Positions 12,253 to 49,384 of a stretch of DNA of 64,000 bases are shown here, piece by piece (the first letter of the stretch is position 1; the number at the start of each line of letters is the position of its first letter). The DNA is from Longimicrobiales bacterium (GTDB lineage Bacteria > Gemmatimonadota > Gemmatimonadetes > Longimicrobiales > RSA9). The notes under the pieces are model-generated. The model was given only the letters and a program-made list of their open reading frames with translations. It made no database searches and had not been told where the DNA came from. Location of the stretch: assembly GCA_036381195.1 (NCBI GenBank), contig DASVDH010000078.1, forward strand, positions 10,250 through 74,249, written 5' to 3'. Both the position numbers and the translations under genes were made by a program.

Positions 12253-13905
12253 ATGAGCGAGCATCCGACGGGTGCGCGAGTCGTGCGGCAGAGGGGGCGA
12301 CGCGCCTGGCCACGACTGCTGTGCATGGCGGTCACGGGCGCTCTCTACATCGTCCTCGCAAACGATGGCAGGCACCACTGGCACGAGTGGCGCCACGTCT
12401 ACTCCGCGGCGCACTTCACCATCGAGCAGCTCGCCGCGGGCGAGTTCGACCCCGGGCCACCCCCGGAGAGAACCGCCACCGAGGCGGCCGGCTGGTACTG
12501 GGGACAGTTGGGGCACGAAGCCCTCCTGCGCGCCATCATCCGGCTGGCGGGGCCGGGGCTGGGGACGGTCGCGCTCCTGGAATGGCTGTACGGCCTGCTG
12601 GTTCCGCTGGCGGCGCTCCTGACCTTCCTCACGCTCCGGCGCCTGCCGCTCGGAACCGATCCGTCCCTGATCTCCGCCGCCACCCTCCTGTCGCCCCTCG
12701 CGGTCTACCTGGGGTTCAAGCTGATGGGGGAGGTGCCGGCGCTGCTCTTCGCGGCGTTCGCCGGATACCTCTTCCTGGCGGGCCTCCGCGCGCGGCATCG
12801 CCTTGCGGCCGCGGCGCTCCAAACGGGAGCCGGGCTGTCCCTCGCGCTCTGCTTCCTGTGCAAGGTGTTCATGCCCCTCTCGTTCTTCGGGTTCGCGCTG
12901 GCGTTGCCCGCCGCGTTCCCTGAATACGGCTGGAGGCGGGTGTCGGGGCGATTGCTGCTCACGACGGGAGTCGCGGCCGCGGCTGCGGCCTGGGCAGGCG
13001 CCGCGGTTTCCGTTCGGCCCGCGGACTGGGCGCTGGTGTACGTCTTCTTCAGGGACTACCGGCAACCGGCGGCGGCTTCCGCCTTCGGCCTGCTGAGCGC
13101 CGGGTCCCTGCTCTACGCGCTGGTCCCGTTCTCCTTCCTCGCCCGGGACTCGAGGGCGGTGCGGTTCTTCGCTGCGTGGCTGGGCTTCACGGCGGCTCCG
13201 GTGCTCCTCCTGGCGACCAATTTCGTCGAGGCCCGCTACCTCGCCGTCGCTCTGGTTCCGTTCGCGGGCCTGGGCGTTGCCGGCCTGGAAGAGATCGTGC
13301 GCCGCGTTCGCGGGCCCGTGGGAGATGCGGCCCTTCGAACGCGCAGCGCCATCGCCACCCTGGTGATCGTGCCCGTGGCGACGGCCGGCGCGCTCCCCTT
13401 CCTCCCGTACGAGATGAGCTGCCGGGAGCTGGTCAACCTCGTCACCCGGATCTGGGGCGAAGATCCGGATGCCGCCCTCCTGGTGCCGTGGAATTACACC
13501 GATTATCACCTCCTCGCGTTCGCCTTCCCGGGCCGGCCCATCTACCTGGTCCAGTCCCCCGTTGACGACCGCGGCGTCGTGTACCGGGACAGTCTTTGGG
13601 AACGGCGCCAGGAGCGGAACTACGGCCCGGCGTTCATTCCCGGCCCGGAGGACCTCGGCCGCGTGGCGGAGACGACGAGGGTCTACCTCGGCCACGGCGT
13701 GCTGCCCCCCATTGCCAATCTCCGGAAGCTCGCCTCGAGTCTGGGCATCACGCCGATCGTCCGGAGCCTGGACGCGCTGCAGCCCCGGAGGCACATCACG
13801 GAGAGCTGGCTGTGGAGCAGTCCGGAGGTACGGCTGCAGGAAGCGCTGCGCGTGGGCCGGTACGCCGCTTACCGTGTCGAAGCTACGCCGGCGGCTCCGC
13901 CCTGA
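12253..13905 (+). CDS. polytopic membrane protein, GT-C (ArnT/PMT, GT39/83)-like glycosyltransferase
   Basis: N-terminal ~380 aa contain many hydrophobic helices. A C-terminal ~150 aa soluble domain ends ...YAAYRVEA. Layout matches the ArnT/PMT_2-like proteins at 27599 and 41681. Confidence 0.6.
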   Translation: MSEHPTGARVVRQRGRRAWPRLLCMAVTGALYIVLANDGRHHWHEWRHVYSAAHFTIEQLAAGEFDPGPPPERTATEAAGWYWGQLGHEALLRAIIRLAGPGLGTVALLEWLYGLLVPLAALLTFLTLRRLPLGTDPSLISAATLLSPLAVYLGFKLMGEVPALLFAAFAGYLFLAGLRARHRLAAAALQTGAGLSLALCFLCKVFMPLSFFGFALALPAAFPEYGWRRVSGRLLLTTGVAAAAAAWAGAAVSVRPADWALVYVFFRDYRQPAAASAFGLLSAGSLLYALVPFSFLARDSRAVRFFAAWLGFTAAPVLLLATNFVEARYLAVALVPFAGLGVAGLEEIVRRVRGPVGDAALRTRSAIATLVIVPVATAGALPFLPYEMSCRELVNLVTRIWGEDPDAALLVPWNYTDYHLLAFAFPGRPIYLVQSPVDDRGVVYRDSLWERRQERNYGPAFIPGPEDLGRVAETTRVYLGHGVLPPIANLRKLASSLGITPIVRSLDALQPRRHITESWLWSSPEVRLQEALRVGRYAAYRVEATPAAPP

Positions 13906-13915
13906 TCGCCAGCGA

Positions 13916-13929
13916 CTGAGCCGGCTCAG
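13916..13929. terminator. possible bidirectional hairpin between convergent genes
   Basis: Perfect 14-bp palindrome CTGAGCCGGCTCAG in the 66-bp gap between convergent stops. No U-tract. Confidence 0.25.
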
Positions 13930-13971
13930 CCGTGCAGGCGTCGCATACCATCGGTGGGATGACGCCAGGAT

Positions 13972-15582: not shown

Positions 15583-15949
15583 CCGGGGCCGATGCCCCGG
15601 CGCCGGAGCGCGATCACCGCGACGCGGGCGTCCCTGAACCCGGCGTCCTCGAGGGCGAAGGGCCGGGGCGTCCCCGCATGCCTGCGCGGGGTCGCGGATG
15701 CGCGCAGCGGATCCAGCCACCGTCTTTCTCCTTCCTGGCCGGTCGCTCGCCTCTGCCTCACCGCCCGGCATCGGACCCGCAGACGGCACGTTGCCGCCCG
15801 ATGACGACATCACACTCATGCACGCCAACCCTAGCGGCGTCGCGGAGGCGATGGCTGTCCGCGGGTCCGCGTGGGCCGAATCCAAGATGGCCCGTGCTCC
15901 GGCGGCATGAAAGTGCCGCGGCTACGCCCGGCTCGATGCGAGCGCGGAT

Positions 15950-19078: not shown

Positions 19079-19184
19079 GGATTCCTCAGGTGGAGGGCTG
19101 CGGTTCGACCCCGGTACGGCAGACTCGGCTCCGCCACCGGGGGATCGCGACATTGTACTGGATGCTTGCTCGCAGCCCGCTACC

Positions 19185-19200
19185 TGCAAGGAGGATGCCG
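19185..19200 (-). promoter_or_regulatory. candidate sigma-54 (-24/-12) promoter for the carbamoyltransferase gene
   Basis: Minus strand reads CGGCAT-CCTCC-TTGCA against consensus TGGCAC-N5-TTGCW. GG and GC have exact spacing. Predicted TSS is near 19173, about 95 nt upstream of ATG 19078. Confidence 0.5.
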
Positions 19201-19631: not shown

Positions 19632-19665
19632 CCCCGGGCAGCGCCACGTCGACAGGAGTTCCACG

Positions 19666-21560: not shown

Positions 21561-22831
21561 GCGCGCCGGCGGTGACCCGGGTGCGGGCGAGGGCCCGCGG
21601 GGGGCGGACGAGCGAGCCGCGGCTCGGCGGGCCATTCCGGCATCAGCCGCCGGTCCGCTCGCCGGTCCCGCCGGGCGCGTTCGTTGCCGCCATCCGGCAG
21701 CTTCTCCGGCTCGCCCCCGATCCGCGACCGCGCCTTTCGGCCCTGCTGGAGGCGGTGTACGGAGCCGAGCGCGTGGTGCTCTGCTCCAGCGGCACGGCGG
21801 CGCTCCAGCTCGCGATCCGGGTCGCGGCGGCGCACGCGGGCGAGCCGGGGCCGGTCGCGCTCCCGGCGTTCACGTGCTACGACGTCGCCTCCGCGGCGAT
21901 CGGCGCGCAGGCGAGTCTCGTGCTGTACGACGTCGAGCCCTCGGCGCTCGCGCCGGATCTCGCGTCGCTGGAGCGGGCCCTGCGCGTCGGCGCCCGTGTC
22001 GTGGTGGTCTCGCCGCTGTACGGGATCCCGGTGGATTGGGGGGCCGTCCAGGCGCTGTGCGACCGCTACGGCGCGGTGCTCATCGAGGATGCGGCCCAGG
22101 GCCACGGCGCCGCCTGGCGCGGCCGGCCGATCGGCTCGCTCGGCGCGATCAGCGTGCTGAGCTTCGGCCGCGGGAAGGGGTGGACGGGCGGCAAGGGAGG
22201 CGCGTTGCTGCTCCGGGGCGCTGCTGCCGGAGCGCACGCTCGGGTGGCGGAGGAGCTGGCAGGGACGTCCGCATTCGTCGAAGCCCGCGTGGTCGCCGGA
22301 TCGCTGGCGCAGCAGGTCCTCGGGCGTCCCGGGCTCTACGCCCTGCCTCGCGCGGTGCCGTGGCTGCACCTCGGCGAGACGCGGTACCGGCCGCCCGTCC
22401 CGCCCGCGGCGTTGCCCAGGGCGGCGGCAGCGCTCCTGCAGGCCTCCAAGGATGCCGCGGATCGGGAAGCCGCACGGCGGCGGGCGAACGGCGAGTTCTT
22501 CCGTGCACGGCTCGACGGCATCGCAGGCATTGGGGTACCGGCCCCGCCGCCGCAGGCGAGCCCCGGGTACCTGCGCTTCCCGGTGCTGGTCCGGGGCGGA
22601 GCCGGGGCGCTCGGTCCCTCGGCCCTCCTCCGGCGCTTCGGGGTGGAGGCCGGGTACCCGCAGCCGCTCTCGGAGCTCGGCCCCGTGCGTGGGCGGCTGG
22701 CCACCGACCCCGGTCCGCTGCGAGGCGCGACGGCCCTGGCGCGGGAGCTGGTGACGCTGCCGACGACTTCGCTACTCGGTGATTCGGAAAAGCACGGCCT
22801 GTTGCGTCTCCTCGATCGATTGCGACGGTGA
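21557..22831 (+). CDS. DegT/DnrJ/EryC1/StrS-family (PLP-dependent) aminotransferase-like protein
   Basis: GTG 21557 overlaps the upstream stop (GTGA). CSSGTAALQLAI, LIEDAAQGHGA and the candidate PLP-Lys region SFGRGKGWTGGKGGALL. Confidence 0.75.
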   Translation: MSAPAVTRVRARARGGRTSEPRLGGPFRHQPPVRSPVPPGAFVAAIRQLLRLAPDPRPRLSALLEAVYGAERVVLCSSGTAALQLAIRVAAAHAGEPGPVALPAFTCYDVASAAIGAQASLVLYDVEPSALAPDLASLERALRVGARVVVVSPLYGIPVDWGAVQALCDRYGAVLIEDAAQGHGAAWRGRPIGSLGAISVLSFGRGKGWTGGKGGALLLRGAAAGAHARVAEELAGTSAFVEARVVAGSLAQQVLGRPGLYALPRAVPWLHLGETRYRPPVPPAALPRAAAALLQASKDAADREAARRRANGEFFRARLDGIAGIGVPAPPPQASPGYLRFPVLVRGGAGALGPSALLRRFGVEAGYPQPLSELGPVRGRLATDPGPLRGATALARELVTLPTTSLLGDSEKHGLLRLLDRLRR

Positions 22832-23853
22832 ACGGTCTGGACCGGGAACGGAGCGGACCTCACGGTTGGGCCACGACGGCCAGTGCCGGAGGCAGCTCGG
22901 AGCCCGGGCCGGCGCTGTCCGTCGTCGTGCCGCTGTACAACGAGGAGGGGAACATCCACCCCCTGGTTTCCGCCGTCCGGGAGGCGCTCGCGGCCGTGGA
23001 ATCGTGGGAGCTTCTCCTGGTGGATGATGGCAGCACGGACGGGACGGCCGCGCGTGCGCTGGAGTGCTGCGGCGCGGACCCGCGGGTGCGGCTGTTGAGA
23101 CTCGCCAGGAACTACGGGCAGACCGCCGCGATGCAGGCGGGGTTCGACCACGCGCGGGGGGCCGTGGTGGTCAGCATGGACGGCGACATGCAGAACGATC
23201 CCGCCGACATCCCACGGCTGGTTGCCCGGCTCGACGAGGGGTTCGACCTCGTGGCGGGCTACCGCGAGCGGCGGCGGGACAAGGTCCTGACACGGAAGGT
23301 GCCCTCCTGGCTGGCGAACCGACTGATCCGGCGCGTGACGGGCGTTCCGATCCGGGACAACGGCTGCTCGCTGAAGGCGTTTCGCCGGGACCTGCTGCAC
23401 CGGCTGCACCTGTACGCGGACCTGCACCGGTTCATTCCCGCGGTGGCCGCAGCGACGGCCGGCGCGCGGATCACGGAGATACCGGTTCGGCATCATCCCC
23501 GGCAGTACGGCCGGAGCAAGTACGGTCTTTCGAGGACGGTGAAGGTCCTGCTGGATCTGCTGACGGTCCGGATGATCCAGCGGGTGCGGGAGCGGCCGCT
23601 CCAGCTCTTCGGCGCCGGCGCGCTCGCCGCGTGCGTGTGCGGCGCCGTGTTCGCGGCCTTCGCGGCGATCGCATACGCCAGGTTCGGTCCGGACAAGGCC
23701 TACTCCGTCGTGTTTCCGGCCGTGTCCCTGCTCTGGTTCGGGCTCGGGGCCTACCTGCTCATGCTCGGGCTGATCGCCGAGGCCGCGCTGCGGGAGGACC
23801 TCCCGGGACACGGACGGAACGCGCCGGTCGTGCGTGAGGTGTCGGGCTCATGA
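22828..23853 (+). CDS. GT2 polyprenol-phosphate sugar synthase-like glycosyltransferase (ArnC/GtrB/DPM1 type)
   Basis: GTG 22828 overlaps the upstream stop (GTGA). LSVVVPLYNEEGNI, LLLVDDGSTDGT and SMDGDMQNDP, plus two C-terminal TM helices as in ArnC/GtrB. Confidence 0.8.
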   Translation: MNGLDRERSGPHGWATTASAGGSSEPGPALSVVVPLYNEEGNIHPLVSAVREALAAVESWELLLVDDGSTDGTAARALECCGADPRVRLLRLARNYGQTAAMQAGFDHARGAVVVSMDGDMQNDPADIPRLVARLDEGFDLVAGYRERRRDKVLTRKVPSWLANRLIRRVTGVPIRDNGCSLKAFRRDLLHRLHLYADLHRFIPAVAAATAGARITEIPVRHHPRQYGRSKYGLSRTVKVLLDLLTVRMIQRVRERPLQLFGAGALAACVCGAVFAAFAAIAYARFGPDKAYSVVFPAVSLLWFGLGAYLLMLGLIAEAALREDLPGHGRNAPVVREVSGS

Positions 23854-24887
23854 ACAGCGCGGATACGGCGGTTTCCGGGAGCGCGGCGTTCACGACTGCC
23901 GACCTGCGGCCGTCGACGGTCTCCGTGATCGTGCCGGTCACGGAGAGGCCCGAGCCGCTGGCGGAGCTCTACCGCGAGTACGCCGCGCCCCTGCGCGCGG
24001 CGGGGCACTCATTCGAGTTCCTGTTCGGCTGCGAGCCGTGGGCCCGCGGGCTTGCAGGGCCGGTGGCTGCGCTGGCGGACGCGGGCGAGCCCGTACGGGT
24101 GCTGGAGGTGGCGAACAGCGCCGGGGAGACGACGCTGCTGAAGGCGCTGGCGGCGCGCGCGGAGGGCGGGATCGTGATCACGCTGCCCGCGTACCGACGC
24201 GTGGAGTCGGCCGTGTTGCCCGTGCTGATCGCGCGGGTCGAGCAGGGCGCCGACATGGTGCTCGCCCGCCGCTGGCCGCGCCGCGACTCGTGGATCAACC
24301 GCCTCCAGAACCGGCTCTTCCACGCTCTCGTCGGCCGCGTGTCGGGCGGCGAGCTGCACGACATCGCGTGCGGGGTCCGGGCGATGCGGCGAGAGGTGCT
24401 GCTGGACCTCCCCGTCTATGGCGACCTGGCGCGGTTCCTCCCGCTGTTCGCCGTGCGGGAGGGCTACGACGTCCGGGAGGTCGATGCGCCGCAGCACCGC
24501 GCCGACGTCCATACGCGGATCTACGGCGCCGGCACGTACCTGCGGCGCCTGCTCGATGTGCTCGGGCTCTTCTTCCTGCTGCGATTCACGGACAAGCCAC
24601 TGCGCTTCTTCGGCCTGATCGGCAGCTCACTCCTGCTGGGCGGCGCGGTCCTGCTGCTCGTGCTCTTCATCCAGCGCCTGGGCGGGGAGGGCATCGCGAA
24701 CCGGCCGTTCCTGCTCCTGGGCTCGCTGCTCGCCGTTCTCGGGGTGCAGGCCATCGCGCTCGGACTCGTCGGCGAGATCATCGTGTATCTGCACGCGCCC
24801 TCGCGCCGGCCGTACCGGCTCGCGCGGACGCGGACACCGCGGTCCGAGGAGGCGGTGGCAACGCCGGTGGCCGCGGATCGGCAATGA
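23850..24887 (+). CDS. GT2-like glycosyltransferase, divergent, with C-terminal TM helices
   Basis: ATG 23850 overlaps the upstream stop (ATGA). VSVIVPVTERPEPL. Same topology as the preceding gene, with two C-terminal TM helices. The DDGS-type motif is not conserved (FLFGCEP). Confidence 0.7.
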   Translation: MNSADTAVSGSAAFTTADLRPSTVSVIVPVTERPEPLAELYREYAAPLRAAGHSFEFLFGCEPWARGLAGPVAALADAGEPVRVLEVANSAGETTLLKALAARAEGGIVITLPAYRRVESAVLPVLIARVEQGADMVLARRWPRRDSWINRLQNRLFHALVGRVSGGELHDIACGVRAMRREVLLDLPVYGDLARFLPLFAVREGYDVREVDAPQHRADVHTRIYGAGTYLRRLLDVLGLFFLLRFTDKPLRFFGLIGSSLLLGGAVLLLVLFIQRLGGEGIANRPFLLLGSLLAVLGVQAIALGLVGEIIVYLHAPSRRPYRLARTRTPRSEEAVATPVAADRQ

Positions 24888-26100: not shown

Positions 26101-27576
26101 TCAGCTCGCGACCTGCGGCTCCGGCCTCTGGCTCCGCCGCATCGAGCGGATCAGGTCGCGGAGCTCGGAGATGACCGGCAGCCCGGTGGCGAGCACGAGA
26201 GCCGAATAGCTGACCATGCCGAGCCCCACGAGGACAACGAGCGTCGTCGCGGGTGACCAGCTCGCGGGGAGCAGGTGCCCGGCGGCCCAGACGAGAACGG
26301 CCATCGCCATGGCGCAGAGGAGCGGGCCGCTGACCGAGCGCGCGACCTCGGAGAAACGCAGGTCGATGAGGCGTCCCGCGATGGCGATGCACGGGTAGCA
26401 GATCACCACGTTCGCCAGGAAGTACCAGAGCGCGACGGCCTGCACGGTCCCCTGGAGGACCCCGACGACGATCCCGACGATCAGCGTTCCGGATCCTCCG
26501 ACCCCCCACCAGAACATCCGGTCGGTCCGGCCCTGCGATGTGTAGATCCACCCCGTCGGGCTGCACATGGACTGGATGACGCCGACGAAGCAGAGGATGC
26601 GGAGCAGCGGCGCGACTCCGATCCACCGCTCGCCGAAGAGCGTCAGGACGAAGGGTTCCGCGACCACGACGAGGCCCAGCATCATCGGGAAGGCGATCAG
26701 CGCGATCGTCGGCATGGCGCGCAGGTAGATCCGCTTGACGCGCGCCCGATCCTGCTGGATGGACGACAGCGCCGGGAACATGACGTTACCGAGCACGGAG
26801 ATCACCTCGCTGATCGGGAGGAGCATCAGGCTGTACGCCCGGCTGTAGATGCCGAGGGGGGCGGATCCGAGAAACTTGCCGATCAGCAGGTTGTCGGCGT
26901 TGCGGGCCCAGTAGTTGATCACCCCGAAACCGACGAGGTTGCTGCTGTAGCCCAGGAGCTCGCGGACCGCGGAAACCGAGAACTGCAGGGTCGGCCGCCA
27001 GCGCGAGAATGCGAGGGCGAGGCCGCTGGTGGAGGCCGCCGAGACGAGTCCCTGGATGACGAGGGCCCACGCCCCCAGGCCGGCGTAGGCGAGCCCCACC
27101 GCGACGATCCCGGCCACCAGGGCGGCGAGGACGTTCAGGGCGGCGACGCGGTCGAACGCCATGCGCCTGCGGAGGAGCGCGGCGGGGACGATGCCGAACG
27201 CGCTCAGCAGGAAATTCAGCCCGATCGCCCGAGTGATGCCCACGAGCATCGGGGTCTCGTAGAAGGTCGCAACGAAGGGTGCGGCGACCCAGAAGACGGT
27301 CGCGAGCAGCGCGCCCGCCGCGACGTTCACCCAGAAGATGCTGGCGAGGTGGATGGGCCGGAGGTCGGGCCGATAGACGACGGCGGAACTGAACCCGAAC
27401 TCGGCGAACAGGGTCGCGAAGCCGATGAACACGGCGACCATGCCGACGAGGCCGTAGTCCTCCGGAAGGAGCAGGCGGGCGAGGATGACGGAGAGCGTGA
27501 ACTGGATCGCTTGCTGGATGACACGCGCGACGGTGTTCCAGGCGATGCCCGTGACTGTGCGCTCCTTCAACGACAT
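26101..27576 (-). CDS. Wzx-type flippase / polysaccharide biosynthesis protein (MOP superfamily)
   Basis: ATG 27576 gives MSLKERTVTGIAWNTVARVIQQAIQFTLSVILARLL..., a typical N-terminus for this family. 491 aa and polytopic. The upstream 162 aa of ORF 26101..28062 are junk. Confidence 0.85.
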   Translation of the reverse strand: MSLKERTVTGIAWNTVARVIQQAIQFTLSVILARLLLPEDYGLVGMVAVFIGFATLFAEFGFSSAVVYRPDLRPIHLASIFWVNVAAGALLATVFWVAAPFVATFYETPMLVGITRAIGLNFLLSAFGIVPAALLRRRMAFDRVAALNVLAALVAGIVAVGLAYAGLGAWALVIQGLVSAASTSGLALAFSRWRPTLQFSVSAVRELLGYSSNLVGFGVINYWARNADNLLIGKFLGSAPLGIYSRAYSLMLLPISEVISVLGNVMFPALSSIQQDRARVKRIYLRAMPTIALIAFPMMLGLVVVAEPFVLTLFGERWIGVAPLLRILCFVGVIQSMCSPTGWIYTSQGRTDRMFWWGVGGSGTLIVGIVVGVLQGTVQAVALWYFLANVVICYPCIAIAGRLIDLRFSEVARSVSGPLLCAMAMAVLVWAAGHLLPASWSPATTLVVLVGLGMVSYSALVLATGLPVISELRDLIRSMRRSQRPEPQVAS

Positions 27577-27598: not shown

Positions 27599-29293
27599 TC
27601 ACTGAGAAGAGACCCGCGCGACTCCAGCGGGGCAGGCGCTGGCATCGGCTGCAGGGTTGCGCCACCGGAACGCAGTGAGCCGGAGGCCGGCAGGGAGTGA
27701 GAGGGTCTCCGTATGGTCCCGCAGGTAAGCAGCGGTGGCTGGAGGCACCGACCAGGTCTGGCCCAGGTGCTTGTCCTCGACGACGACGAGGCCGCTGCGC
27801 TGGCACGCGATGAGGCGCGCCACGGATTCCGGGTGCGTGATGGTCGGCCGGAGCAGGTTGGACGCGATCGAGAACTCGGGTTCGCTCCCGAGCGCGGTGG
27901 CGGAGAGGACCACGTCCACGCGGCCGAGATAGAAGAGGGCCTTGAGGCCCGATGACGACACGATGACGGCGGAGCTGTCCACGACGGTTCGCAAGGCAGC
28001 GGTCGCCGCCGCCCAATCGGGCTCGCCTCGATAGAGGATGGGCGCGGCCCAGTCCGCGTCATCGACCGTCAGCATCTTGTAGCTCAGCCGGTAGGCGCTG
28101 TTGGCGGTGACCAGGTAGCCGATGACGATCGCGAGCGAGACCTTCGTTGCGGGCGCGGCGAGCCGCCGGGCAGTGGCGGGCCAGCGAGCGCTGTGCCACA
28201 GGGCCCGCACCCGCCGGGAGGTCCACCGTAGCGCCGCCGCCGCGGCGATGCCCCACAGGGCGAAGAGGAGCGGCATCGCGTAGAACAGGAAGCGCGGGTT
28301 CTTCCAGGCCGCGAGCGAGTGGGTCGCGAACGCGATCAGGAAGATGGCGCCGGCGAACGCCGCGAACCGCGGGTGGCGGTGCAGGGCCACGACGAGCACG
28401 ATGGGCAGCAGGGACCACATCGTGGGATAGCCGTCGAGCAGGAAGCGGACGTAGTAGAGAGGATCGTCCGCCATCCCCGCGGCCCAGAGGTCGGCGTAGG
28501 TGAAGAGCTCGAGGTAGCGCGGGAGCAGACGGCGGGCCGCGAAGGCGGCCGGCAGTGATGCGACGAGCAGAGCGGGAAGCCACCACCGCCATCGACGCCC
28601 GACCGCCGCGAGGGTCTCGCCGCGGACGAGCAGCAGCAGTGCGGCGAGGGTGACGCCTCCCAGCCCGATCACGGTCGTGACCTGCAGATGATACGCCAGC
28701 CCGAACGCGCCGAACGCGCCCGCGATGAGCGCTGCGCGGCGGGCCGAGGACAGGGGCGCTGTGCAGAGGTGGAACACCGCGATCGCGCCCAGCAGGAAAA
28801 GCAGCGCATGGATCGTGTAGAAGCGCGTGAGCTGGGAGAGATAGAGCGCAGTGGGGTCGAGGCACAGGAAGAGCGCGGCGAGCCACGCCGCGGCGCGCCC
28901 GGCAACGGATCGCGTCCAGAGGAACAGGACCGCGATGAGCGCCGTGCCGGCGAGCACGGCCGGGATCCGCGCGACGACCACGCTCTCGCCGAAGAGCCGG
29001 AACATCGCTGCGACGAGATACGTGAACGCGCGCGCCCGCGTGTACATGCCGCCATCCTCTCCGAGGCGGAGCGTTCCATCCTCGAGGAGCGAACGTGCGG
29101 CGAGGATGTGGTTCAGCTCGTCGACCTGGACCGTGTGGTCGAGCCGGATCGAGCGGATGGCCAGCGCAATGGCCGTGAGGAGCGCCAGATCCCGCCACGG
29201 GATGCCCCCGAGCGCCGCGGTGGCATGGAAGGGAGCCGCGCGGGGAAGCACCCGGCTCCCGGTCTCAGGCACAGCGATCCCGGTCGATCCCAT
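27599..29293 (-). CDS. GT-C (ArnT/PMT, GT39/83)-like membrane glycosyltransferase
   Basis: ATG 29293. The polytopic N-terminal part has a loop-1 acidic motif region (VDELNHILAARSLLEDG). A C-terminal ~150 aa soluble domain ends ...LTAFRWR. Confidence 0.65.
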   Translation of the reverse strand: MGSTGIAVPETGSRVLPRAAPFHATAALGGIPWRDLALLTAIALAIRSIRLDHTVQVDELNHILAARSLLEDGTLRLGEDGGMYTRARAFTYLVAAMFRLFGESVVVARIPAVLAGTALIAVLFLWTRSVAGRAAAWLAALFLCLDPTALYLSQLTRFYTIHALLFLLGAIAVFHLCTAPLSSARRAALIAGAFGAFGLAYHLQVTTVIGLGGVTLAALLLLVRGETLAAVGRRWRWWLPALLVASLPAAFAARRLLPRYLELFTYADLWAAGMADDPLYYVRFLLDGYPTMWSLLPIVLVVALHRHPRFAAFAGAIFLIAFATHSLAAWKNPRFLFYAMPLLFALWGIAAAAALRWTSRRVRALWHSARWPATARRLAAPATKVSLAIVIGYLVTANSAYRLSYKMLTVDDADWAAPILYRGEPDWAAATAALRTVVDSSAVIVSSSGLKALFYLGRVDVVLSATALGSEPEFSIASNLLRPTITHPESVARLIACQRSGLVVVEDKHLGQTWSVPPATAAYLRDHTETLSLPAGLRLTAFRWRNPAADASACPAGVARVSSQ

Positions 29294-34725: not shown

Positions 34726-36177
34726 TCAGGAGCGCGGGCGCCGCACGGGGATTCGGGCGGCCACCTGCCGCGGGTGCGCCCCAGCTACGCGGTCGGCCAC
34801 GGCGGGGCGCCCGTGGACGGAACGGACGCCCGTCACCTTGGCGAGCCCGACGATGACGCCGTGGACGACGAACATGTACGCAGCATACGCCTGAGACAGG
34901 AAGAAGCCGCAGATCACGTAGCCGATGATGGTCCCCGCGAGCGCGTGGCCGAGGACCACCTCGTCCGATTGGGTGGTCCCGCGGCCCGGCGCAGGATCGA
35001 TGCTGCGTGCCGTCCTGTACGCATGGACCAGGAGGAGCACGAGTGCGACCAGGCCGCCGATCCCGAGCTCCGCGCCGATCTCCACGAAGGAGTTGTGCGC
35101 AGCGGACCACTTCAGGCCGATTCCGTACTCCTGCCGCTCGGCCAGCGGAGAGATCGTGCCCTCCGCGACCGGGAACGCGCGGACGCCGACGCCCGTCACG
35201 GGGCGGGACAGCATGTAGCCGATTCCTCGTTTCCAGACCTCCATCCGACCGGCCTCGGAGTTGCCGCTCCAGTTGTAGTCCTGCGTAGGATGGAGCAGCG
35301 TGCGCATCATGCTCCAGTAGGTGTCGTTGCCGGCCAGCAGCAGCAACGCCAAGCACGCGCCGACCGCCGCCATGCGCACCTTCACGGGGACCGACCGGAA
35401 CGCCAGCAGGAGATAGCCGCCCACGCCGAGCAGGCCCAGGAACGCCCCCCGCGAGCCCGTCTTGATGATCACAAGCACGAACAGACCGATGCAGAGGGCG
35501 GCGGCGGCGCGCCCGAGGAGAGTGCGTCCGCGGAGCACGAAGAAAACGGCGAGCGGGAGGGAGCAGACGAGCAGCATGCCGAGGTCGTTCGCATCGTAGT
35601 AGACGATGTTTCCCAGACGTCCGCTCGGCCCGATGCTCAGATTCAGATACACGAACTGTGCGTAGATCGCGCCGCCGATCACGATGAAGGCGGCGTAGCG
35701 GCGCACATCCTCCAGCGTCCGGATGCTCGCCGCGAGGATGATCATGAGCAGGAAGTTCTTGCTCAGGTCATCCTTGATGAAGCCGAAGCTCAGTCCCTGA
35801 TAGAGACTGGTGGGGACGGAGGCCACGGCGAGCGCCACGATCGCGATGACGCAGGCGGTCACCGGATGCCGGATCGTGTTCAGCTTGCGCCGAGGATCCC
35901 CGTCCATCACGTAGAGGCCATACATCGCGAGCGAGGCGAGGATCGGCAGCTTGACCGTCGCGAGGATCGGGTAGAGGTCCTGGACGCGCCAGACGTACGT
36001 CAGGATGCTCACTGCCACCGCGAGCAGGAGCATGTCTACTTTCGCGGATTGCCGGGCCGCGACCACGCGCGTGCGCCCTGCCCGCGCCCCTGCCACGGGC
36101 GGAGCGGGAGGTCGCCGGATGCCGGCCGGGGTTCGGCCGATCGTGCCAGGTGGAAGACGGATCGACATGCGCCTCAT
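34726..36177 (-). CDS. O-antigen ligase/polymerase (Wzy_C-domain) family membrane protein
   Basis: Polytopic. KTGSRGAFLGLLG and SAAHNSFVEIGAELGIGG motifs are typical of the O-antigen-ligase domain. The N-terminal 48 aa are Arg/Pro-rich, so the true start may be ATG 36033. Confidence 0.75.
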   Translation of the reverse strand: MRRMSIRLPPGTIGRTPAGIRRPPAPPVAGARAGRTRVVAARQSAKVDMLLLAVAVSILTYVWRVQDLYPILATVKLPILASLAMYGLYVMDGDPRRKLNTIRHPVTACVIAIVALAVASVPTSLYQGLSFGFIKDDLSKNFLLMIILAASIRTLEDVRRYAAFIVIGGAIYAQFVYLNLSIGPSGRLGNIVYYDANDLGMLLVCSLPLAVFFVLRGRTLLGRAAAALCIGLFVLVIIKTGSRGAFLGLLGVGGYLLLAFRSVPVKVRMAAVGACLALLLLAGNDTYWSMMRTLLHPTQDYNWSGNSEAGRMEVWKRGIGYMLSRPVTGVGVRAFPVAEGTISPLAERQEYGIGLKWSAAHNSFVEIGAELGIGGLVALVLLLVHAYRTARSIDPAPGRGTTQSDEVVLGHALAGTIIGYVICGFFLSQAYAAYMFVVHGVIVGLAKVTGVRSVHGRPAVADRVAGAHPRQVAARIPVRRPRS

Positions 36178-40706: not shown

Positions 40707-41510
40707 CTAGAACGCGAGCGAAGTCGGAGCCAGCGCCCCGTCGACGCTCTGGGATTCGAGGTCGAGCAGGGCCACCTGGGGCTGGTCGTAGAAGCCACGG
40801 AGCAGATTGCCGCGGATCACCAGCAGATCGCGGGCCATGCGGAGCGAATCGAGCGCGAGATTGACGCGCGAGCCGGGCTTGTGCGTCCAGTTGACCGGAA
40901 CCTCCGTGACCCGGTACCCGGCCCGGCGCGCCATCAGCAGCACCTCGACATCGAAGCTGAAGCCGTTCATCCGCATGCGCGAGAAAAGGTCGTGCGCGAC
41001 CGAGTCGCGGAACAGCTTGAAGCCGCACTGCGTGTCGGCAATGCCGCCGACGGCCAGGGTTCGCACCAGGAGATGGAAGGCCCGGCCGATGACGCGCCGG
41101 TACAGGCGCGCCCGCACCTCCACTCCCGACGCCCGCAGGGCGCGGGAGCCGATGGCAATGTCGGCCCCCGCATCGATCGCCGCCTCCAGGCGCTCGAGCT
41201 CGGCGATGGGCGTCGCGCCGTCCGCGTCGGCGAACAGGACCAGCCGCCCCGTGGCGTTGACGACGCCCACCCGCACCGCGTAGCCCTTGCCGCGGTTGCC
41301 GGGCAGCCGGAACAGGCGGATCTCGGGGTAACCCCGCGCCAGTCGCGCGACCAGAGCACTCGTGCCGTCCCGACTCCCATCATCGACCACCAGGATCTCG
41401 GCGGCGCGGCGCCGTTCCCGGAAATACGAGACGGTCTCGCGAAGCGTGGGCTCCAGCCGTGCTTCTTCGTTGAACGCGGGAATGATGACGGAGAGCTCGG
41501 GTCGCAACAC
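40707..41510 (-). CDS. GT2 glycosyltransferase, DPM1/ALG5/GtrB-like (polyprenol-phosphate sugar synthase candidate)
   Basis: GTG 41510 is preceded by AGAGGA, 5 nt upstream. LSVIIPAFNEEARL, ILVVDDGSRDGT and LFADADGATP motifs. No C-terminal TM. Confidence 0.8.
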   Translation of the reverse strand: MLRPELSVIIPAFNEEARLEPTLRETVSYFRERRRAAEILVVDDGSRDGTSALVARLARGYPEIRLFRLPGNRGKGYAVRVGVVNATGRLVLFADADGATPIAELERLEAAIDAGADIAIGSRALRASGVEVRARLYRRVIGRAFHLLVRTLAVGGIADTQCGFKLFRDSVAHDLFSRMRMNGFSFDVEVLLMARRAGYRVTEVPVNWTHKPGSRVNLALDSLRMARDLLVIRGNLLRGFYDQPQVALLDLESQSVDGALAPTSLAF

Positions 41511-41680: not shown

Positions 41681-43174
41681 TCAGCCATCCCCGAGGGGGG
41701 GCCCGCACAGGTGGAGGTCGACGCGGTACACGCGGTAATCGAACCGTGGGCGTTGGTGCGAGTGAGTCAGGCGGCAGTGCCGGTCGAGCCAGGGGGCGAC
41801 CTCGCCGGAGCCATCGAAGGCGAGGCCCTCGCGCCGGACCAGGGCCACCACCCAGAAGGGGGATCCGCCCGCAAGCATTTCATCGAGCTGGGCCGTGTTC
41901 ATTTTCAGCTCGCGGCCATCGAGCTCGGGCGCGTAATGCCGCTGGAAGATGATCGGCGTCGTGAGGACCGGGAGCTCCGGCGCTGTCCCGGCGATCACGC
42001 GGAACGCGGGCCGCGGATCGAACCGCATCCCATCCGACAGGTGGGAGACGAGGGATGGCGCGAGGCCCGCGCCGATGACCGCCATCACCGCCGCCGCCAG
42101 CAGGCCCCGCCGCTCGACGGCCCGTTCCGCCACGAGATGGATCAGGCCGCCGGCAGAGACGAACACCATGGGCAACATGACGACGGCGTAGTCCGCGTAG
42201 ACGTTCGTCACGGCGGAAGCGGCGAGCAGCGCCGCGAGCGTGCTCACCCCACCACTGATGGCAAGGACGGCCCACCGGCGCTGCCGGGCGCTCGACGCGA
42301 GGGGCAGGAGGGCGAGTGCGCCGGCCGCCGCGGCCGCGACCAGCACGGGGGTCAACCATTCGACGATGGCCGGCAAGAGCCGGAGCGTCGCCTCCAGACC
42401 CCGGCCGCTGAAGTTCCGCAGAGAAGAGCCGCGTCCCAACAGGGACAGGGTCAGGTAGCCCGCGCCCGCGATCGCCGCGAACGGCAGCCAGAGCGCCGAC
42501 CACGCCGCCCGGGACGGCCACGCCCAGCCCAGCCGGCCGGACCGCCCGACCAGCACCGTCGCGAGGGCCACGCCCGCCACCGGGAACAGGAAGGTCGGGT
42601 GGGTGGCCGTGCCCAACACCAGGGCCACGAGCGCGGCGAGGTAGTCGCGCGGCCGATCGGTGTCCCAGGCGCGGATCAGGAAGAGCAGGAAGAGCGCGGA
42701 CAGGAGATAGAGCAGCGACCCGTACCGCGCCATTCCCGAGACGTGGAGATGCCAGGGCGCCAGCGCCACCCAGAGCGCGGCGGCGATGGCGCCGAGCCGG
42801 CCGAAGAGCTCGGCCCCGAGCTTCCAGGTGACGTAGATGCCCAGGATGCCGAACAGGAGCGGCAGCAGCCGCATCCCCACGTGGTTGGGAGGCACCCACT
42901 CGAAGAGCACGTGCTGCAGGAGGTAGTAGAGCGGACGCGCCTCGATCCCGGGCCGGAGGGGCGAATCGAACAGGCGCGTCGCCTCGATGACCGTATAGAG
43001 CTCGTCCTCCTCGAACGGGTAGGAGCCGAGGCCGTAGAGCCGCAGGAGGATCCCCAAGCCGAGCACGAGTGCCGGCAGCATTGCGCCCCCGCCGATGCGG
43101 CCTGCCGGCTGCCCGGGTACGGCGGATCGTGTCGCGGCACTCTGTTTCGCCCGAACCAAAAAGGAGGCAACCAT
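41681..43174 (-). CDS. GT-C (ArnT/PMT, GT39/83)-like membrane glycosyltransferase
   Basis: ATG 43174 (the ORF track uses TTG 43180). LRLYGLGSYPFEEDELYTV is the ArnT/PMT-type first-loop acidic motif. Polytopic, with a C-terminal soluble domain ending ...YRVYRVDLHLC. Confidence 0.7.
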   Translation of the reverse strand: MVASFLVRAKQSAATRSAVPGQPAGRIGGGAMLPALVLGLGILLRLYGLGSYPFEEDELYTVIEATRLFDSPLRPGIEARPLYYLLQHVLFEWVPPNHVGMRLLPLLFGILGIYVTWKLGAELFGRLGAIAAALWVALAPWHLHVSGMARYGSLLYLLSALFLLFLIRAWDTDRPRDYLAALVALVLGTATHPTFLFPVAGVALATVLVGRSGRLGWAWPSRAAWSALWLPFAAIAGAGYLTLSLLGRGSSLRNFSGRGLEATLRLLPAIVEWLTPVLVAAAAAGALALLPLASSARQRRWAVLAISGGVSTLAALLAASAVTNVYADYAVVMLPMVFVSAGGLIHLVAERAVERRGLLAAAVMAVIGAGLAPSLVSHLSDGMRFDPRPAFRVIAGTAPELPVLTTPIIFQRHYAPELDGRELKMNTAQLDEMLAGGSPFWVVALVRREGLAFDGSGEVAPWLDRHCRLTHSHQRPRFDYRVYRVDLHLCGPPLGDG

Positions 43175-44480: not shown

Positions 44481-44481
44481 C

Positions 44482-46015: not shown

Positions 46016-47716
46016 TCATCGGCGTGGGGAACGGGCAGCGATGCTGCGGATCGTGAACGTCCCCACGGAGCGCGACGACGGTTCGACCGGAAAGGCGGCG
46101 AGGGCGGCGATGACCCGATCCGGCCCGTATCCGGCCGCGGCGAGGGCCTTCCATGGGTTCTGTTTCGGGGGAACGTCGTAGATGGAGACGATGTCGACCC
46201 GGCCGCCGCCCTCGAGCGCCTGGCGGATGCGGGCGGCGAGGGTGTCCAGTCCCTCCGGCGCAGGATAGCGATCGGCGAGGGAGGTGACCGAAAGCCTGCG
46301 CGTGCGGTCCGGACCGTCGACGAAGAAGAGGAGCTGGTCCACCTCGTCGTAGCCCGGGTAGATCACGAGGTCCGCGCCGGCCAGGGCGTGCTCGAGGAGC
46401 GCGACGCGTTCGGCCCGTGGGTACAGGACGCGGTTTTTCACCATGTCGAGCGCGTTCCAGCCCAGCGTCAGGAGCACGAGGGCGAGGATCGCCGCAAGCC
46501 GACGCCCCCGCAGACGGATTCCCGTCAGCAGGGCCCCCATCGCGATGCCGAGCTGGAAGTAGAACTGGTCGTCCGAGTTGTTCCAGTAGACCGCGAACGT
46601 GAACACCGCGATGCCGATGCCGGCCGCGAGGAGGGGAGCGATCCCCCTCGTTCCGGGCGCGTCCGGATCCGGGGCCACCAGGGAATCGCGGAGCGCGAGC
46701 ACGAGCACGAGAACCCCCGCCAGGCAAAAGGCCAGCGGAGCCAATGACGCGGGCGTCAGCGTCCTGCCATCCCGGATCGCCTCGACCACGGGGGCGAGAT
46801 CGACGATGCTGCTGAGCGAGCCGTACACTGCCCGGGCTGTTGAAACGGTGATCGCGCGGACCGAGAGGTCCGCGCCGTAACCCGCCGCCAGCAGGCCGGG
46901 GGATGCATCGCCACCATAGCTGGTGATCCACGAAACCGGCCCCACCTCTGACGGGCCGACCACGGCCCACGCCGCAATGAGCCCTGCGAGCGCCGTGAGG
47001 ACCGCCCCCAGGCCCAGGCCGGCCGCGATCTGGACGACTCGCCGCACCTCGCGCCGCAGGGCGTACCGCATCCCGATGACGCCGGCAATTGCGAGCGGAA
47101 TCAGGATGTTCGAGATGTAGGCCAGTGCAGCCGCTCCTCCGACCAGGCCAGCAAACACCGCCAGCATCCAGCTCGGGCGCGCCACGTAGGCGACCACCAG
47201 CGCTGCCACACCGGCCAGGAACGGCATCTGGAGCATGTGGATCTCATCCGAGATCCAGAGGCGCGAGAACGCCGACCCCAGCGCAACCCACGCGGTGGCG
47301 AGGTTTGCTTCCAGCCGACCGGGGGCCAGGGGGCCGGCGACACGCCAACGAAAGATGCCGAGCGCAGCCGCACCGCACACGATGCTCAGCCATTTCAGCC
47401 GGTCGGGAGCCGGGCGCGCCGAGCCCAGCCCCGCCGTCACCGCCTGCCACCAGCTCCCCACGGGCTCCAGCAGCAGGTGATTCGGGTTCCACGTCCAGGT
47501 GCCGCGGGTGAACGTCGCGCTGTGCGCGAGACCATCCCCGGAAACGAAGCCGATCGGCACGACGCACAGCACCAGAGCCGGTACGACGAGCCAGAGCAGC
47601 GCGTCTATACGATCGGCTCCGCTTCGTCCGAGCGCTCGGCCGGCAGGCCCAATCGCATGCACGGGCGTGCCCGGCGCGGGGGCAATCGCCTGAGGCTTGG
47701 AATCAGGGGGCACCAT
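46016..47716 (-). CDS. uncharacterised polytopic membrane protein with C-terminal soluble domain (GT-C-like layout)
   Basis: 566 aa with many hydrophobic helices through ~aa 430. The soluble tail runs ...LVIYPGYDEVDQLLFFVDGPD...FTIRSIAARS. No family recognised. Confidence 0.6.
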   Translation of the reverse strand: MVPPDSKPQAIAPAPGTPVHAIGPAGRALGRSGADRIDALLWLVVPALVLCVVPIGFVSGDGLAHSATFTRGTWTWNPNHLLLEPVGSWWQAVTAGLGSARPAPDRLKWLSIVCGAAALGIFRWRVAGPLAPGRLEANLATAWVALGSAFSRLWISDEIHMLQMPFLAGVAALVVAYVARPSWMLAVFAGLVGGAAALAYISNILIPLAIAGVIGMRYALRREVRRVVQIAAGLGLGAVLTALAGLIAAWAVVGPSEVGPVSWITSYGGDASPGLLAAGYGADLSVRAITVSTARAVYGSLSSIVDLAPVVEAIRDGRTLTPASLAPLAFCLAGVLVLVLALRDSLVAPDPDAPGTRGIAPLLAAGIGIAVFTFAVYWNNSDDQFYFQLGIAMGALLTGIRLRGRRLAAILALVLLTLGWNALDMVKNRVLYPRAERVALLEHALAGADLVIYPGYDEVDQLLFFVDGPDRTRRLSVTSLADRYPAPEGLDTLAARIRQALEGGGRVDIVSIYDVPPKQNPWKALAAAGYGPDRVIAALAAFPVEPSSRSVGTFTIRSIAARSPRR

Positions 47717-47758
47717 TGCGTTGGGGCAATCGGGTCTTGAGGCAGGGCCGCTGGGCGT

Positions 47759-47774
47759 TGCAAGAACGGGGCCA
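47759..47774 (-). promoter_or_regulatory. candidate sigma-54 (-24/-12) promoter
   Basis: Minus strand reads TGGCCC-CGTTC-TTGCA, one mismatch to consensus. It lies in the 111-bp gap. Predicted TSS is near 47747, about 30 nt before ATG 47716. Confidence 0.55.
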
Positions 47775-47827
47775 ACCGACGACGGCCCGGCTATGGCGGG
47801 GCTTCGGGCCGGAGCCCCCTCTTGCCG

Positions 47828-49384
47828 TTACGGCGGAAGCGGCTCCGATTCCCGGCCAGGAACAACCCGGTACAGCGTGACCTCGCCTTTGTGCGCCACG
47901 GGCTCGGCGTGTTCCATGATCAGCGCGCTCGCCCGTGGATCATCTCCCGCTTCTACGATGAACTCGTACTGGGCGAGAATGCGGTCCCAAGCGAGCGGGC
48001 TGTATTGCCTCGTGCCCCAGTCGTCGCCCGGATGGTAGAGGCGATCCGGCACCCAGAAATGGAGGAGCTGCTGCCCGTTCCCGTTACCGGAGAAGAGGTT
48101 GGGAGCACGACCCTGCCGCTTGATCGTATGCCAGTGAGCGAAGTGGCGGTAAGCCGGGATTCGGCCGTGCCGGCGCTGATCCGAGACCAGCGGTAGCACG
48201 TTCGACCGGGCGGGGAGCAAGTCCAGTACGGCAGCCATGTCCGCCAGCTCCCGATCGATGACGACGGCGCGATGCCCTATGACGGCAGCGTGCACCAGGC
48301 ATCCGAGAAACGGCAGCAACAAGAAGACGCGCCTCGGCGGCGACTCGCGAGCAGGACAGCAGAAGATCAGGAGCAGGCCGGGAAGGAGGAAGCGGACATC
48401 GACATCCTCCGCGCCCATGAACGTCGCCGGAAACACCAGATAGGCGATAAAAAGGCCGGCCGTAGCGAGCGCGAGGGAATCCCGCTTCCGCTGGAAGCGG
48501 TGCCAGACGCCAAACAGGAGGACTGACGCGAAATAGGTGCCTGCCATGAGCGCGGCCTGCGCGGGCGAAAAGGAGTAGAACGGCGCGAACACGTGGGTCG
48601 CCTTGCTCAAGGCGCCGCGCATCTCGGTCGTGTACGCGGGCAAGGGAGCGCCTGGCGCGTAAGCTTTGGCAGCCAACCACGCGCTGCCGACCGCCAGCGT
48701 GACCGCCACTGTCGCCCAGGTCCGTTGGTCGCGGATCGCTCGCCGGACGTGGAGCTCCCCCGAGCCGAGGTGGAGCGCTGTATCCGTCCACGCCACGATC
48801 AGGGCGACGGCGGCGGCGGAGAGGTGCACGAAGTAGAGCGCCAGGGCGCCTACCGCCAGCAAGAGGCCGGCTGCGGCCGATGGGTGCGTGCGGTATCGCC
48901 ACCATCCCGCGATCCACAGCATGGCCAGACCAACGCCCACGGCATAGCTGACGAATCCGATGAGGAAGAACCAGTTGAACGCGAGCAGCGCTCCGATCAG
49001 GGCCCACCCGCGTGCGGCCGGCGCCTTGGCCCGGAGGAGCAAGTACATGGCGACAGGGGTGAGATTCACGGCCACGAGAGACAGCACTCGTTGCGCAGCG
49101 AGCGGCGGCATCAGCCCGACCAGGATCGCGCCCACTGCATCCATGCCCAGATAGGCGGTGGGAACGAATCGGAACTCGGCAGGAAACGGTGGCGGTTCTC
49201 CTCCCCAGATCTGCGCCAGCAGGACGTATCGGGCCAGGTGGTTGGTCGCATCCGTGTACGGGAAGTACTGCACCGTCAGCACGACGGCGGTGTTGGCCGC
49301 GATGGCGATTCCCAGGAGCAGCGCCTCCCGGGAAAGCATGCGGTGTCGGCCCCCATCCGCTCTCGTCGAGTTCCAGGATGGCAT
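47828..49384 (-). CDS. uncharacterised polytopic membrane protein with C-terminal soluble domain (GT-C-like layout)
   Basis: ATG 49384 is preceded by AGGAG, 7 nt upstream. 518 aa with hydrophobic helices through ~aa 370. The soluble tail ends ...KGEVTLYRVVPGRE. No family recognised. Confidence 0.65.
   Translation of the reverse strand: MPSWNSTRADGGRHRMLSREALLLGIAIAANTAVVLTVQYFPYTDATNHLARYVLLAQIWGGEPPPFPAEFRFVPTAYLGMDAVGAILVGLMPPLAAQRVLSLVAVNLTPVAMYLLLRAKAPAARGWALIGALLAFNWFFLIGFVSYAVGVGLAMLWIAGWWRYRTHPSAAAGLLLAVGALALYFVHLSAAAVALIVAWTDTALHLGSGELHVRRAIRDQRTWATVAVTLAVGSAWLAAKAYAPGAPLPAYTTEMRGALSKATHVFAPFYSFSPAQAALMAGTYFASVLLFGVWHRFQRKRDSLALATAGLFIAYLVFPATFMGAEDVDVRFLLPGLLLIFCCPARESPPRRVFLLLPFLGCLVHAAVIGHRAVVIDRELADMAAVLDLLPARSNVLPLVSDQRRHGRIPAYRHFAHWHTIKRQGRAPNLFSGNGNGQQLLHFWVPDRLYHPGDDWGTRQYSPLAWDRILAQYEFIVEAGDDPRASALIMEHAEPVAHKGEVTLYRVVPGRESEPLPP

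Follow-up and report, generated by a model that had tools for sequence, protein, structure and literature searches.

Introduction

Three-component periplasmic glycosylation is well established, and the question raised here is whether five polytopic membrane proteins and three family 2 glycosyltransferases (GT2), encoded together in one bacterial locus, make up systems of this kind. The genes lie in a 64,000-nucleotide stretch of a Longimicrobiales bacterium (phylum Gemmatimonadota; assembly GCA_036381195.1, contig DASVDH010000078.1, positions 10,250 to 74,249), and this whole stretch is referred to as the window. The locus is best explained as an XrtA/PEP-CTERM-type, Wzx/Wzy-dependent exopolysaccharide (EPS) cluster. 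On balance, we favor the reading that it incorporates two modules for extracytoplasmic glycosylation of the three-component (Gtr/Arn-like) type, and that its five glycosyltransferases of fold class C (GT-C) would decorate the EPS or proteins.

Extracytoplasmic GT-C glycosylation diversifies the surface glycans of bacteria both antigenically and structurally and has been characterized mainly in pathogens and Gram-positive bacteria. The window would present the same logic at unusual density in an abundant, poorly studied soil phylum, inside an exosortase-type EPS cluster. The original prediction, which was made from the DNA sequence of the window, held that five such enzymes in one locus are not typical of Wzx/Wzy loci. 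This was overstated, as three-component systems are described as widespread inside O-antigen and capsule loci (PMC11127046) and versions with several GT-Cs have been noted, without explanation (PMC11127046; also PMC8035078).

Five GT-C-like proteins from four sequence families

The G+C content of the window is 70% and open reading frames (ORFs) are therefore plentiful, with real frames having a codon-position G+C of ∼0.72 (GC1), ∼0.5 (GC2), and ∼0.88 (GC3). All eight ORFs considered here show this coding pattern and have conserved homologs, and they are genuine genes. The polytopic proteins are designated A to E and the GT2 enzymes G1 to G3.

12253..13905 (+): A, a 550-residue GT-C-like protein, divergent member of the PMT_2 superfamily (family relatives, profile link to B)
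27599..29293 (−): B, a 564-residue GT-C-like protein, PMT_2-like paralog of A (sub-cutoff PMT_2 match, A-profile link)
41681..43174 (−): C, a 497-residue PMT_2-family GT-C with an EEDELY motif (PMT_2 37.7 bits, above cutoff)
46016..47716 (−): D, a 566-residue protein predicted to have the GT-C_A fold (AlphaFold2 and Foldseek)
47828..49384 (−): E, a 518-residue protein predicted to have the GT-C_A fold, with weak DUF6541-like relatives (AlphaFold2 and Foldseek)
22828..23853 (+): G1, an ArnC/GtrB-type polyprenol-phosphate glycosyltransferase (Glycos_transf_2 116 bits)
23850..24887 (+): G2, a conserved degenerate ArnC paralog (full-length match to ArnC 9hwj, 105 bits)
40707..41510 (−): G3, a soluble DPM1/PpgS-like GT2, candidate polyprenol-phosphate-sugar synthase (Glycos_transf_2 103 bits)

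The GT-C_A fold has a polytopic core of about seven transmembrane (TM) segments and a first extracytoplasmic loop with a pair of juxtamembrane helices, and the catalytic base is a conserved Asp or Glu at the tip of the first of these helices (PMC12041525). Hydropathy gives 7–13 strong TM segments in each of A–E, and their basic N-termini suggest an N-in topology. Just after TM1 each protein carries a first-loop motif, HHWHEW in A, VDELNH in B, YPFEEDELY in C, VSGDG in D, and FPYTDATNH in E, and an acidic residue after TM1 is invariant within each family, such that the first-loop acidic residues expected of GT-C enzymes by the original prediction are conserved in all five. The C-terminal ends read YRV in A, C, and E, FRW in B, and TIRSI in D.

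An all-against-all comparison of the five proteins, which had been suggested as a check, gave no similarity in pairwise BLASTP, and the "same layout" described for D and E is therefore architectural rather than at the level of sequence. When family profiles of limited depth for A, D, and E were compared with hhalign, the probabilities were 1–6%, and a deeper A profile matched C, D, and E weakly (6–27%). The A-family and B-family profiles do match, with 97.3% probability (E 2.4e-11) over 416 columns that include the C-terminal domain, placing the VDE of B on the WDE of the A family, and A and B are therefore distant paralogs in the PMT_2 superfamily. PDB sequences were also searched, using family profiles for A, D, and E and the proteins B and C themselves, with no relevant match, and none of A–E matches the Wzy_C domain. 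Together with the family assignments and models described below, these data support the view that all five proteins are GT-C-like and come from four sequence families.

Sequence evidence for A, B, and C as members of the PMT_2 superfamily

The original prediction had described A, B, and C as ArnT/PMT-like, and their placement in the PMT_2 superfamily is supported at the sequence level, for C directly, for B marginally and through A, and for A through its relatives. The score of C exceeds the gathering cutoff (26.1 bits) of Pfam PMT_2 (PF13231; GT39/GT83-like), and the YPFEEDELY motif that had been singled out as its clearest signature is present at residues 52–60. C also has weak matches to Agl23 and archaeal STT3. 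B scores 23.0 bits, and homologs with 85 and 40% identity to it score 24.3 and 21.8 bits over the same PMT_2 region; there is a weak match of B to TIGR03663 (Agl23), and D58 and E59 are invariant across its family.

A itself has no Pfam or NCBIfam match. It belongs to a coherent family of proteins of ∼540 residues, with 328 representatives recovered when 1.84 billion representative proteins were searched by profile. When 78 diverse relatives were scanned singly, 33 matched PMT_2 (best E 5e-11) and two matched PMT, with no other family among the matches. The first-loop motif of the A family is W-[D/H]-[E/D], in which all 78 sequences have the second acidic residue and the first position is Asp in 55 and His in 23, the protein of the window having H44-E45. 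Four further residues, K156, E160, E326, and R328, are near-invariant.

D and E are predicted to have the GT-C_A fold

Members of the D and E families are hypothetical proteins, found in Gemmatimonadota, in Acidobacteriota, and in metagenomes. Neither D nor E matches PMT_2, and D has no fitting Pfam family and no NCBIfam assignment. Among 39 members of the two families there are three marginal PMT_2 matches and two sub-cutoff DUF6541 matches, both of the latter in relatives of E, and a literature search for DUF6541 returned nothing. AlphaFold2 models of these two proteins were built on family alignments, and A, B, and C were judged on sequence. The predicted local distance difference test (pLDDT) and predicted template modeling (pTM) scores are 89.6 and 0.89 for D and 78.7 and 0.84 for E.

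When the models were compared with the PDB using Foldseek, ranks 1–18 for D were all GT-C_A proteins (DPY19, PglB, STT3, AftA, ALG9, ALG12, and EmbA/B), with AftD, PimE, and Pmt4 at lower ranks, and ranks 1–21 for E were also all GT-C_A, including STT3, Pmt4, PglB, EmbB, PimE, and AftB. ArnT (5F15) matched the E model with a TMq of 0.54. These GT-C_A matches have probabilities near 1.00, and the first non-GT-C matches have a TM-score of ∼0.1 and a probability below 0.4. A Wzy-like polymerase reading of D and E was rejected as having no family or structural support, and WaaL, RodA, and FtsW are absent among the significant Foldseek matches of both.

In the model of D, TM1 is followed by two short helices (60–71 and 83–96) and then TM2, and the same arrangement is seen in E (45–60 and 79–91), with residue positions placed via the secondary-structure strings of the models. 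The first short helix starts in D with D61, invariant in 29 D-family sequences, and in E with D45, invariant in 10 E-family sequences, and a WNNSDDQFYFQ loop is also invariant in the D family. We are confident in the models' prediction that D and E fold as GT-C_A, as had been proposed, with an invariant Asp at the catalytic position. Both models have a C-terminal soluble alpha/beta domain (∼448–559 in D and ∼394–507 in E), in agreement with the layout that had been put forward for the pair, although the (Y/F)R(V/I) ending that went with it applies to E (YRV) and not to D (TIRSI).

The public annotation of D (514 residues, starting MPIGFVSGDG) begins 52 codons late, which removes TM1. The ATG at 47716 restores this segment, which is conserved across the family and modeled with pLDDT above 88.

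The structural data also bear on the possibility that at least one of A, D, and E is a non-catalytic protein of GT-C fold, such as a PIGU-like scaffold or a transport accessory, or that the fold assignment is an artifact. The GT-C_A fold does occur in non-enzymatic PIGU (PMC12041525), in the subfamily of A the first acidic residue of the motif is replaced by His, and the Foldseek E-values are only ∼1e-3 to 1e-4. However, every family keeps invariant charged residues where catalysis and phosphate binding would be expected, the models of D and E have high pLDDT and pTM, every high-probability structural match is a GT-C enzyme, and the genes are conserved beside donor synthases. We regard this explanation as very improbable.

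The GT2 enzymes: Two candidate donor synthases and a degenerate paralog

G1 and G2 each consist of a GT2 domain and two C-terminal TM helices. G1 has full-length PDB matches to ArnC (8vxh, 190 bits), GtrB (sll0501, 107 bits), and DPMS (66 bits), and its DDGS and DGD motifs are intact. Its score of 188 bits against the NCBIfam ArnC model is far under the equivalog cutoff of 529 bits, and G1 is therefore a member of this family and not an ArnC ortholog. The top NCBIfam matches of G3 are all polyprenol-phosphate transferases (PpgS with 72 bits, ArnC, dolichyl-phosphate hexose transferase, AglJ, and PgfS), its best PDB matches are ArnC (62 bits), DPMS (58 bits), and GtrB (44 bits), and its DDGS and DAD motifs are intact. 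The assignment of G1 and G3 as polyprenol-phosphate-type GT2s is supported by these sequence comparisons.

G2 shows 30% identity to G1, and in it DDGS has become GCEPW and DAD has become PAY. The window proteins were compared by tblastn with 18 fetched loci (designated L004, L005, L007, and so on), and the replacement of DAD, seen as LPAY[RH][RQ]V, is kept in the G2 orthologs of L007, from Gemmatimonadaceae (54% identity; 9624-10853, −), and L004, a JGI metagenome contig (47% identity; 20676-21623, +), where G2 always lies directly after G1. Since both catalytic Asp motifs are gone and the loss of DxD is shared by the orthologs, G2 is probably a maintained, non-catalytic paralog, or pseudo-synthase. 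The original prediction of five GT-Cs and three polyprenol-phosphate-sugar synthases thus stands for the GT-C-like proteins, by PMT_2 matches, profile comparison, and models, while the loss of motifs in G2 means that there are probably two active synthases and not three.

Conserved linkage separates two modules and places two flippases

Three further genes of the window enter into the linkage analysis.

10693..12246, start approximate (+): Wzx1, a divergent MOP/Wzx-family flippase (Polysacc_synt 66 bits)
26101..27576, start approximate (−): Wzx2, a WzxC-type MOP flippase (Polysacc_synt_3 306 bits)
34726..36177 (−): a Wzy_C-family polymerase/ligase, the only Wzy-type protein in the window (Wzy_C 58.5 bits; TIGR03097 67.5 bits, below cutoff)

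Synteny resolves the genes into two modules, of which module I combines G1 and G2 with the A/B-type GT-Cs and module II combines G3 with C and D. For module I, L004 has Wzx1 (44% identity) and then A (44%), with G1 (47%) and G2 8 kb away, and it also carries the DAO oxidoreductase, AsnB, GT2, and DUF5060 hydrolase genes of the window. In L007, B (40%) adjoins G2 and G1 (64%), and the order of B and then Wzx2 is kept in L005. For module II, G3 begins 170 nt downstream of C in the window, the pairing of GT-C and GT2 noted in the original prediction, and it is retained in five metagenome loci (L010–L014), where C (73–86%) is followed directly by G3 (81–90%), AsnB, GT4, and deacetylase genes. In L017 and L018, C (49–51%), D (43–49%), G3 (65–71%), and the Wzy_C gene (43–61%) stay together. 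E is found with D in close relatives only.

Wzx1, which has no NCBIfam match, lies directly upstream of A, a position conserved in L004. Wzx2 lies directly downstream of B, whose stop adjoins it, scores 300.9 bits against NF007773 (cutoff 273), and is probably the repeat-unit flippase. In a characterized system, a MATE/MOP flippase has been assigned as the third component from bioinformatics and gene context (PMC11127046). Because it is conserved beside A, is divergent, and has this precedent, Wzx1 is a reasonable donor-flippase candidate and the best one identified. In L018, an LPG_synthase_TM (PF03706) membrane protein (9831-10835, +) is encoded between the D and C homologs and could be the flippase-like component that is missing from the window.

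The linkage of flippases to A and B also admits a different interpretation, in which certain GT-Cs, A and B in particular, are oligosaccharyltransferase- or ligase-like and transfer Wzx-flipped undecaprenyl-diphosphate-linked oligosaccharides en bloc, either to another glycan or to a protein such as a PEP-CTERM or Big_2 surface protein, with no use of polyprenol-phosphate monosaccharides. The adjacency of Wzx1 and A in L004 and of B and Wzx2 in L005 speaks for this interpretation, as do the presence of two Wzx genes to one Wzy_C gene, the XrtA/PEP-CTERM protein-sorting type of the locus, and the STT3 and PglB structures among the top matches of D and E. It is set against the facts that A and B are in the PMT_2 lineage, whose characterized members use monophosphate donors, that the ArnC-type G1 and G2 track A and B across genomes, which argues for a monosaccharide donor, that there is no WWDxG-type STT3 motif and no STT3 family match above noise, and that an exosortase and a PEP-CTERM substrate were not identified in the window. 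En bloc transfer is considered unlikely.

The gene neighborhoods bear equally on the acceptor. The chemistry could be that of the three-component modules while the acceptors are secreted or membrane proteins, which would amount to PMT-like O-glycosylation rather than EPS decoration. PMT_2 is a protein O-mannosyltransferase-like family, homologs of D and E occur on their own outside EPS loci, and Big_2-rich surface proteins repeatedly flank homologs of C, D, and E; in addition, streptococcal GT-C systems are reported to glycosylate Ser/Thr-rich regions (PMC12041528). Yet the PMT_2 family includes lipid- and glycan-modifying enzymes as well, and in several lineages C, D, and G3 are surrounded by genes of the Wzy_C, GT4, deacetylase, and AsnB types, a context that fits modification of a polymer. 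A protein-directed system is considered rather unlikely.

Proposed mechanism

In the favored three-component mechanism, membrane-anchored G1 and soluble G3 would each transfer a sugar from its nucleotide-linked form to polyprenol phosphate at the cytoplasmic face, with G2 most likely serving as a non-catalytic partner of G1, possibly in a complex. The lipid-linked monosaccharides would then be flipped, with Wzx1 as the best candidate for this step. On the periplasmic side, A and B would use the donor made by G1 and C and D that made by G3, while E is not assigned a partner. Indirect support for polyprenol-linked donors on this side of the membrane comes from the conserved linkage of the GT-Cs to GT2 genes of the ArnC and DPM1 types and from the basic N-termini. 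The GT-Cs would add side-chain sugars to the polymer produced by the Bac_transf, GT4, GT2, Wzx2, Wzy_C, and Wzz proteins, or to secreted proteins, and the first juxtamembrane helix would supply the catalytic acidic residue, which is conserved at its tip. The data show that the genes are real, to which predicted folds and families their products belong, which motifs are kept or lost, and which genes stay linked; we infer the enzyme activities, donor sugars, flippase, acceptors, and role of G2 from homology, fold, motif conservation, and synteny.

Several observations weigh against this mechanism. The host is an uncultured metagenome-assembled genome. The GT-C fold of A, B, and C is a matter of sequence comparison, with B never reaching the Pfam PMT_2 cutoff and the subfamily of A carrying His at the first of the two acidic positions of its D-E motif. 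For D and E, the modest Foldseek E-values go with TM-scores of 0.35–0.54, and homologs in other phyla lie outside EPS loci and are without an adjacent GT2. GT-C_A folds are also found in enzymes that use diphosphate-linked oligosaccharides (PglB/STT3), in addition to the non-catalytic PIGU (PMC12041525). Finally, Wzx2 resembles an ordinary repeat-unit flippase, and a flippase of the GtrA/SMR/ArnEF type is absent among all ORFs of the window of at least 70 residues with at least three TM segments.

Relation to known glycosylation systems

The closest parallels are the three-component systems themselves, such as GtrA/GtrB/Gtr* of Shigella and Salmonella and ORF15/ORF14/ORF12 of Citrobacter youngae (GT136; PMC11127046), which likewise combine a GT2 synthase and a GT-C in a polysaccharide locus and in which a MATE/MOP flippase may replace GtrA and several GT-Cs may be present (PMC11127046). 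The window differs from them in having five GT-Cs (from four sequence families) to two predicted active synthases, no GtrA/SMR flippase, the conserved DxD-less paralog G2, and a host locus of the XrtA/PEP-CTERM EPS type in Gemmatimonadota.

Mycobacterial systems share other features. In the PpgS/Rv3779 system, PpgS, the best NCBIfam match of G3, pairs with a PMT_2-type GT-C, and in the decaprenylphosphoryl-arabinose-dependent Emb/Aft system one lipid-linked donor serves several GT-Cs, with AftA, AftB, Emb, and PimE among the matches of the D and E models. However, identity is very low, with G3 scoring 72 bits against a PpgS cutoff of 370 bits, the phylum and the polymer are different, and there is no decaprenylphosphoryl-5-phosphoribose (DPPR)/epimerase pathway. 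Streptococcal and lactococcal rhamnan decoration (GacI/GacL, CsdAB-type; PMC8035078, PMC9574508) is similar in that several GT2/GT-C pairs act on one polysaccharide and accessory synthase subunits exist. Those systems are Gram-positive, the synthase partner is a small membrane protein rather than a degenerate GT2 paralog, and their GT-Cs are from other families.

The window thus stands apart in its density, as ∼37 kb hold five GT-C_A proteins that fall into four sequence families, in its XrtA-type EPS host locus in Gemmatimonadota, in its lack of a GtrA-type flippase, and in having a GT-C family without classification (D) and the conserved pseudo-synthase G2. A more speculative and on present grounds doubtful proposal is that D and E represent new GT-C (CAZy) families, as GT136 did, that G2 is a non-catalytic hetero-oligomer subunit of G1, and that together they form the glycosylation machinery of an exosortase-type EPS/surface-protein system in Gemmatimonadota and Acidobacteriota. 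Were this true, the G2 subunit would represent a previously undescribed regulation or scaffolding of polyprenol-phosphate-sugar synthesis. The locus therefore offers as leads the two synthase/GT-C modules, the unclassified GT-C families (mainly D and less so E), and the conserved pseudo-ArnC paralog, which could reveal how lipid-linked donor synthesis is organized, and annotation is gained for several hundred metagenomic clusters of "hypothetical proteins."

The exopolysaccharide locus and neighboring genes

Pfam and NCBIfam scans show a single very large EPS locus with a Bac_transf priming transferase, numerous enzymes of the GT4 and GT2 families, the Wzx/MOP flippases Wzx1 and Wzx2, the single Wzy_C protein, a Wzz/tyrosine-kinase protein, a Wza-like exporter, deacetylases, and a DegT aminotransferase, together with a sigma-54 two-component pair and a PrsR-like gene. 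Two markers of XrtA/PEP-CTERM systems exceed their cutoffs, a TIGR03006 deacetylase (342.8 bits, cutoff 276) and a TIGR03019 FemAB protein (294.6 bits, cutoff 260), and models for the XrtA-system amidotransferase, the PrsR-like regulator, stp1/stp2, and export components are matched below their NCBIfam cutoffs. An exosortase gene and a PEP-CTERM substrate were not identified in the 64 kb, and the founding paper on PEP-CTERM has nothing on glycosylation enzymes (PMC1569441). Two genes of the locus were concealed by long ORFs.

20490-21560 (+): an uncalled gene for a FemAB-family XrtA/PEP-CTERM-associated protein (TIGR03019)
21650..22831 (+): a DegT-family sugar aminotransferase, start near 21.65 kb by frame plot (DegT_DnrJ_EryC1 125 bits)

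The DegT protein has PDB matches of the WecE type (75 bits) and to ArnB (52 bits), and its stop overlaps the start of G1 by 4 nt. By analogy with arnB before arnC, this overlap hints at an amino-sugar donor. The order of deacetylase, unknown gene, DegT, and ArnC-like genes had suggested an Arn pathway for 4-amino-4-deoxy-L-arabinose (L-Ara4N), which was rejected, as the intervening gene encodes FemAB and not ArnA, there is no ArnA, no ArnT equivalog, and no ArnE/F match, G1 falls far short of the ArnC equivalog cutoff, and the DegT-G1 linkage is absent in L004 and L007. The locus shares some features with that pathway. ArnC is the best solved relative of G1 and G2, the genes of G1 and of an ArnB-family DegT protein show translational coupling, genes of the polysaccharide-deacetylase family and those of ArnT-like GT-Cs are nearby, and the E model is similar to ArnT. 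The Arn pathway modifies lipid A, in contrast to the EPS synthesis of this locus, where the place of ArnA is held by FemAB. The Gtr/Arn-type label of the original prediction is supported as regards the combination of synthase and GT-C, and not for an Arn pathway or for a flippase of the GtrA or ArnEF type.

Three AsnB-type glutamine amidotransferases are encoded (1518-3500, +; 5581-7512, +; 38613-40655, −), and the two that were scanned with NCBIfam lie near TIGR03108 (XrtA-system amidotransferase), below its cutoff. A carbamoyltransferase (17267-19621) and an ATP-grasp enzyme (33510-34715) are also present, and these five genes point to heavily amidated or carbamoylated sugars. A DAO/GlpD-like FAD oxidoreductase (3497-5002, +) occupies an apparent 2-kb gap, with a weaker GC3 bias than its neighbors. 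In L004, L007, and L008 this gene is again found next to GT-Cs of the A/B type, in many cases together with an NAD-dependent epimerase, which suggests a conserved sugar-modifying step of that module.

Just downstream of A are a DUF5060/apiosidase-like glycoside hydrolase (13972-15885, −) and a YdjM-like membrane protein (15950-16927, −), and both are present again in the syntenic L004. E adjoins the gene of a 1032-residue protein (49756-52854, −) whose N-terminus resembles that of a lipoprotein and which has many Big_2/Big_1 repeats and weakly matches polysaccharide-lyase-14. This protein could serve as an acceptor or could process the EPS as an enzyme, and Big_2-rich proteins are found beside C and D homologs elsewhere too (L011, L013, and L017). 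Across positions 54001-64000 of the window the GC skew is +0.16 to +0.23, compared with ∼0.03 elsewhere, while the G+C content is unchanged.

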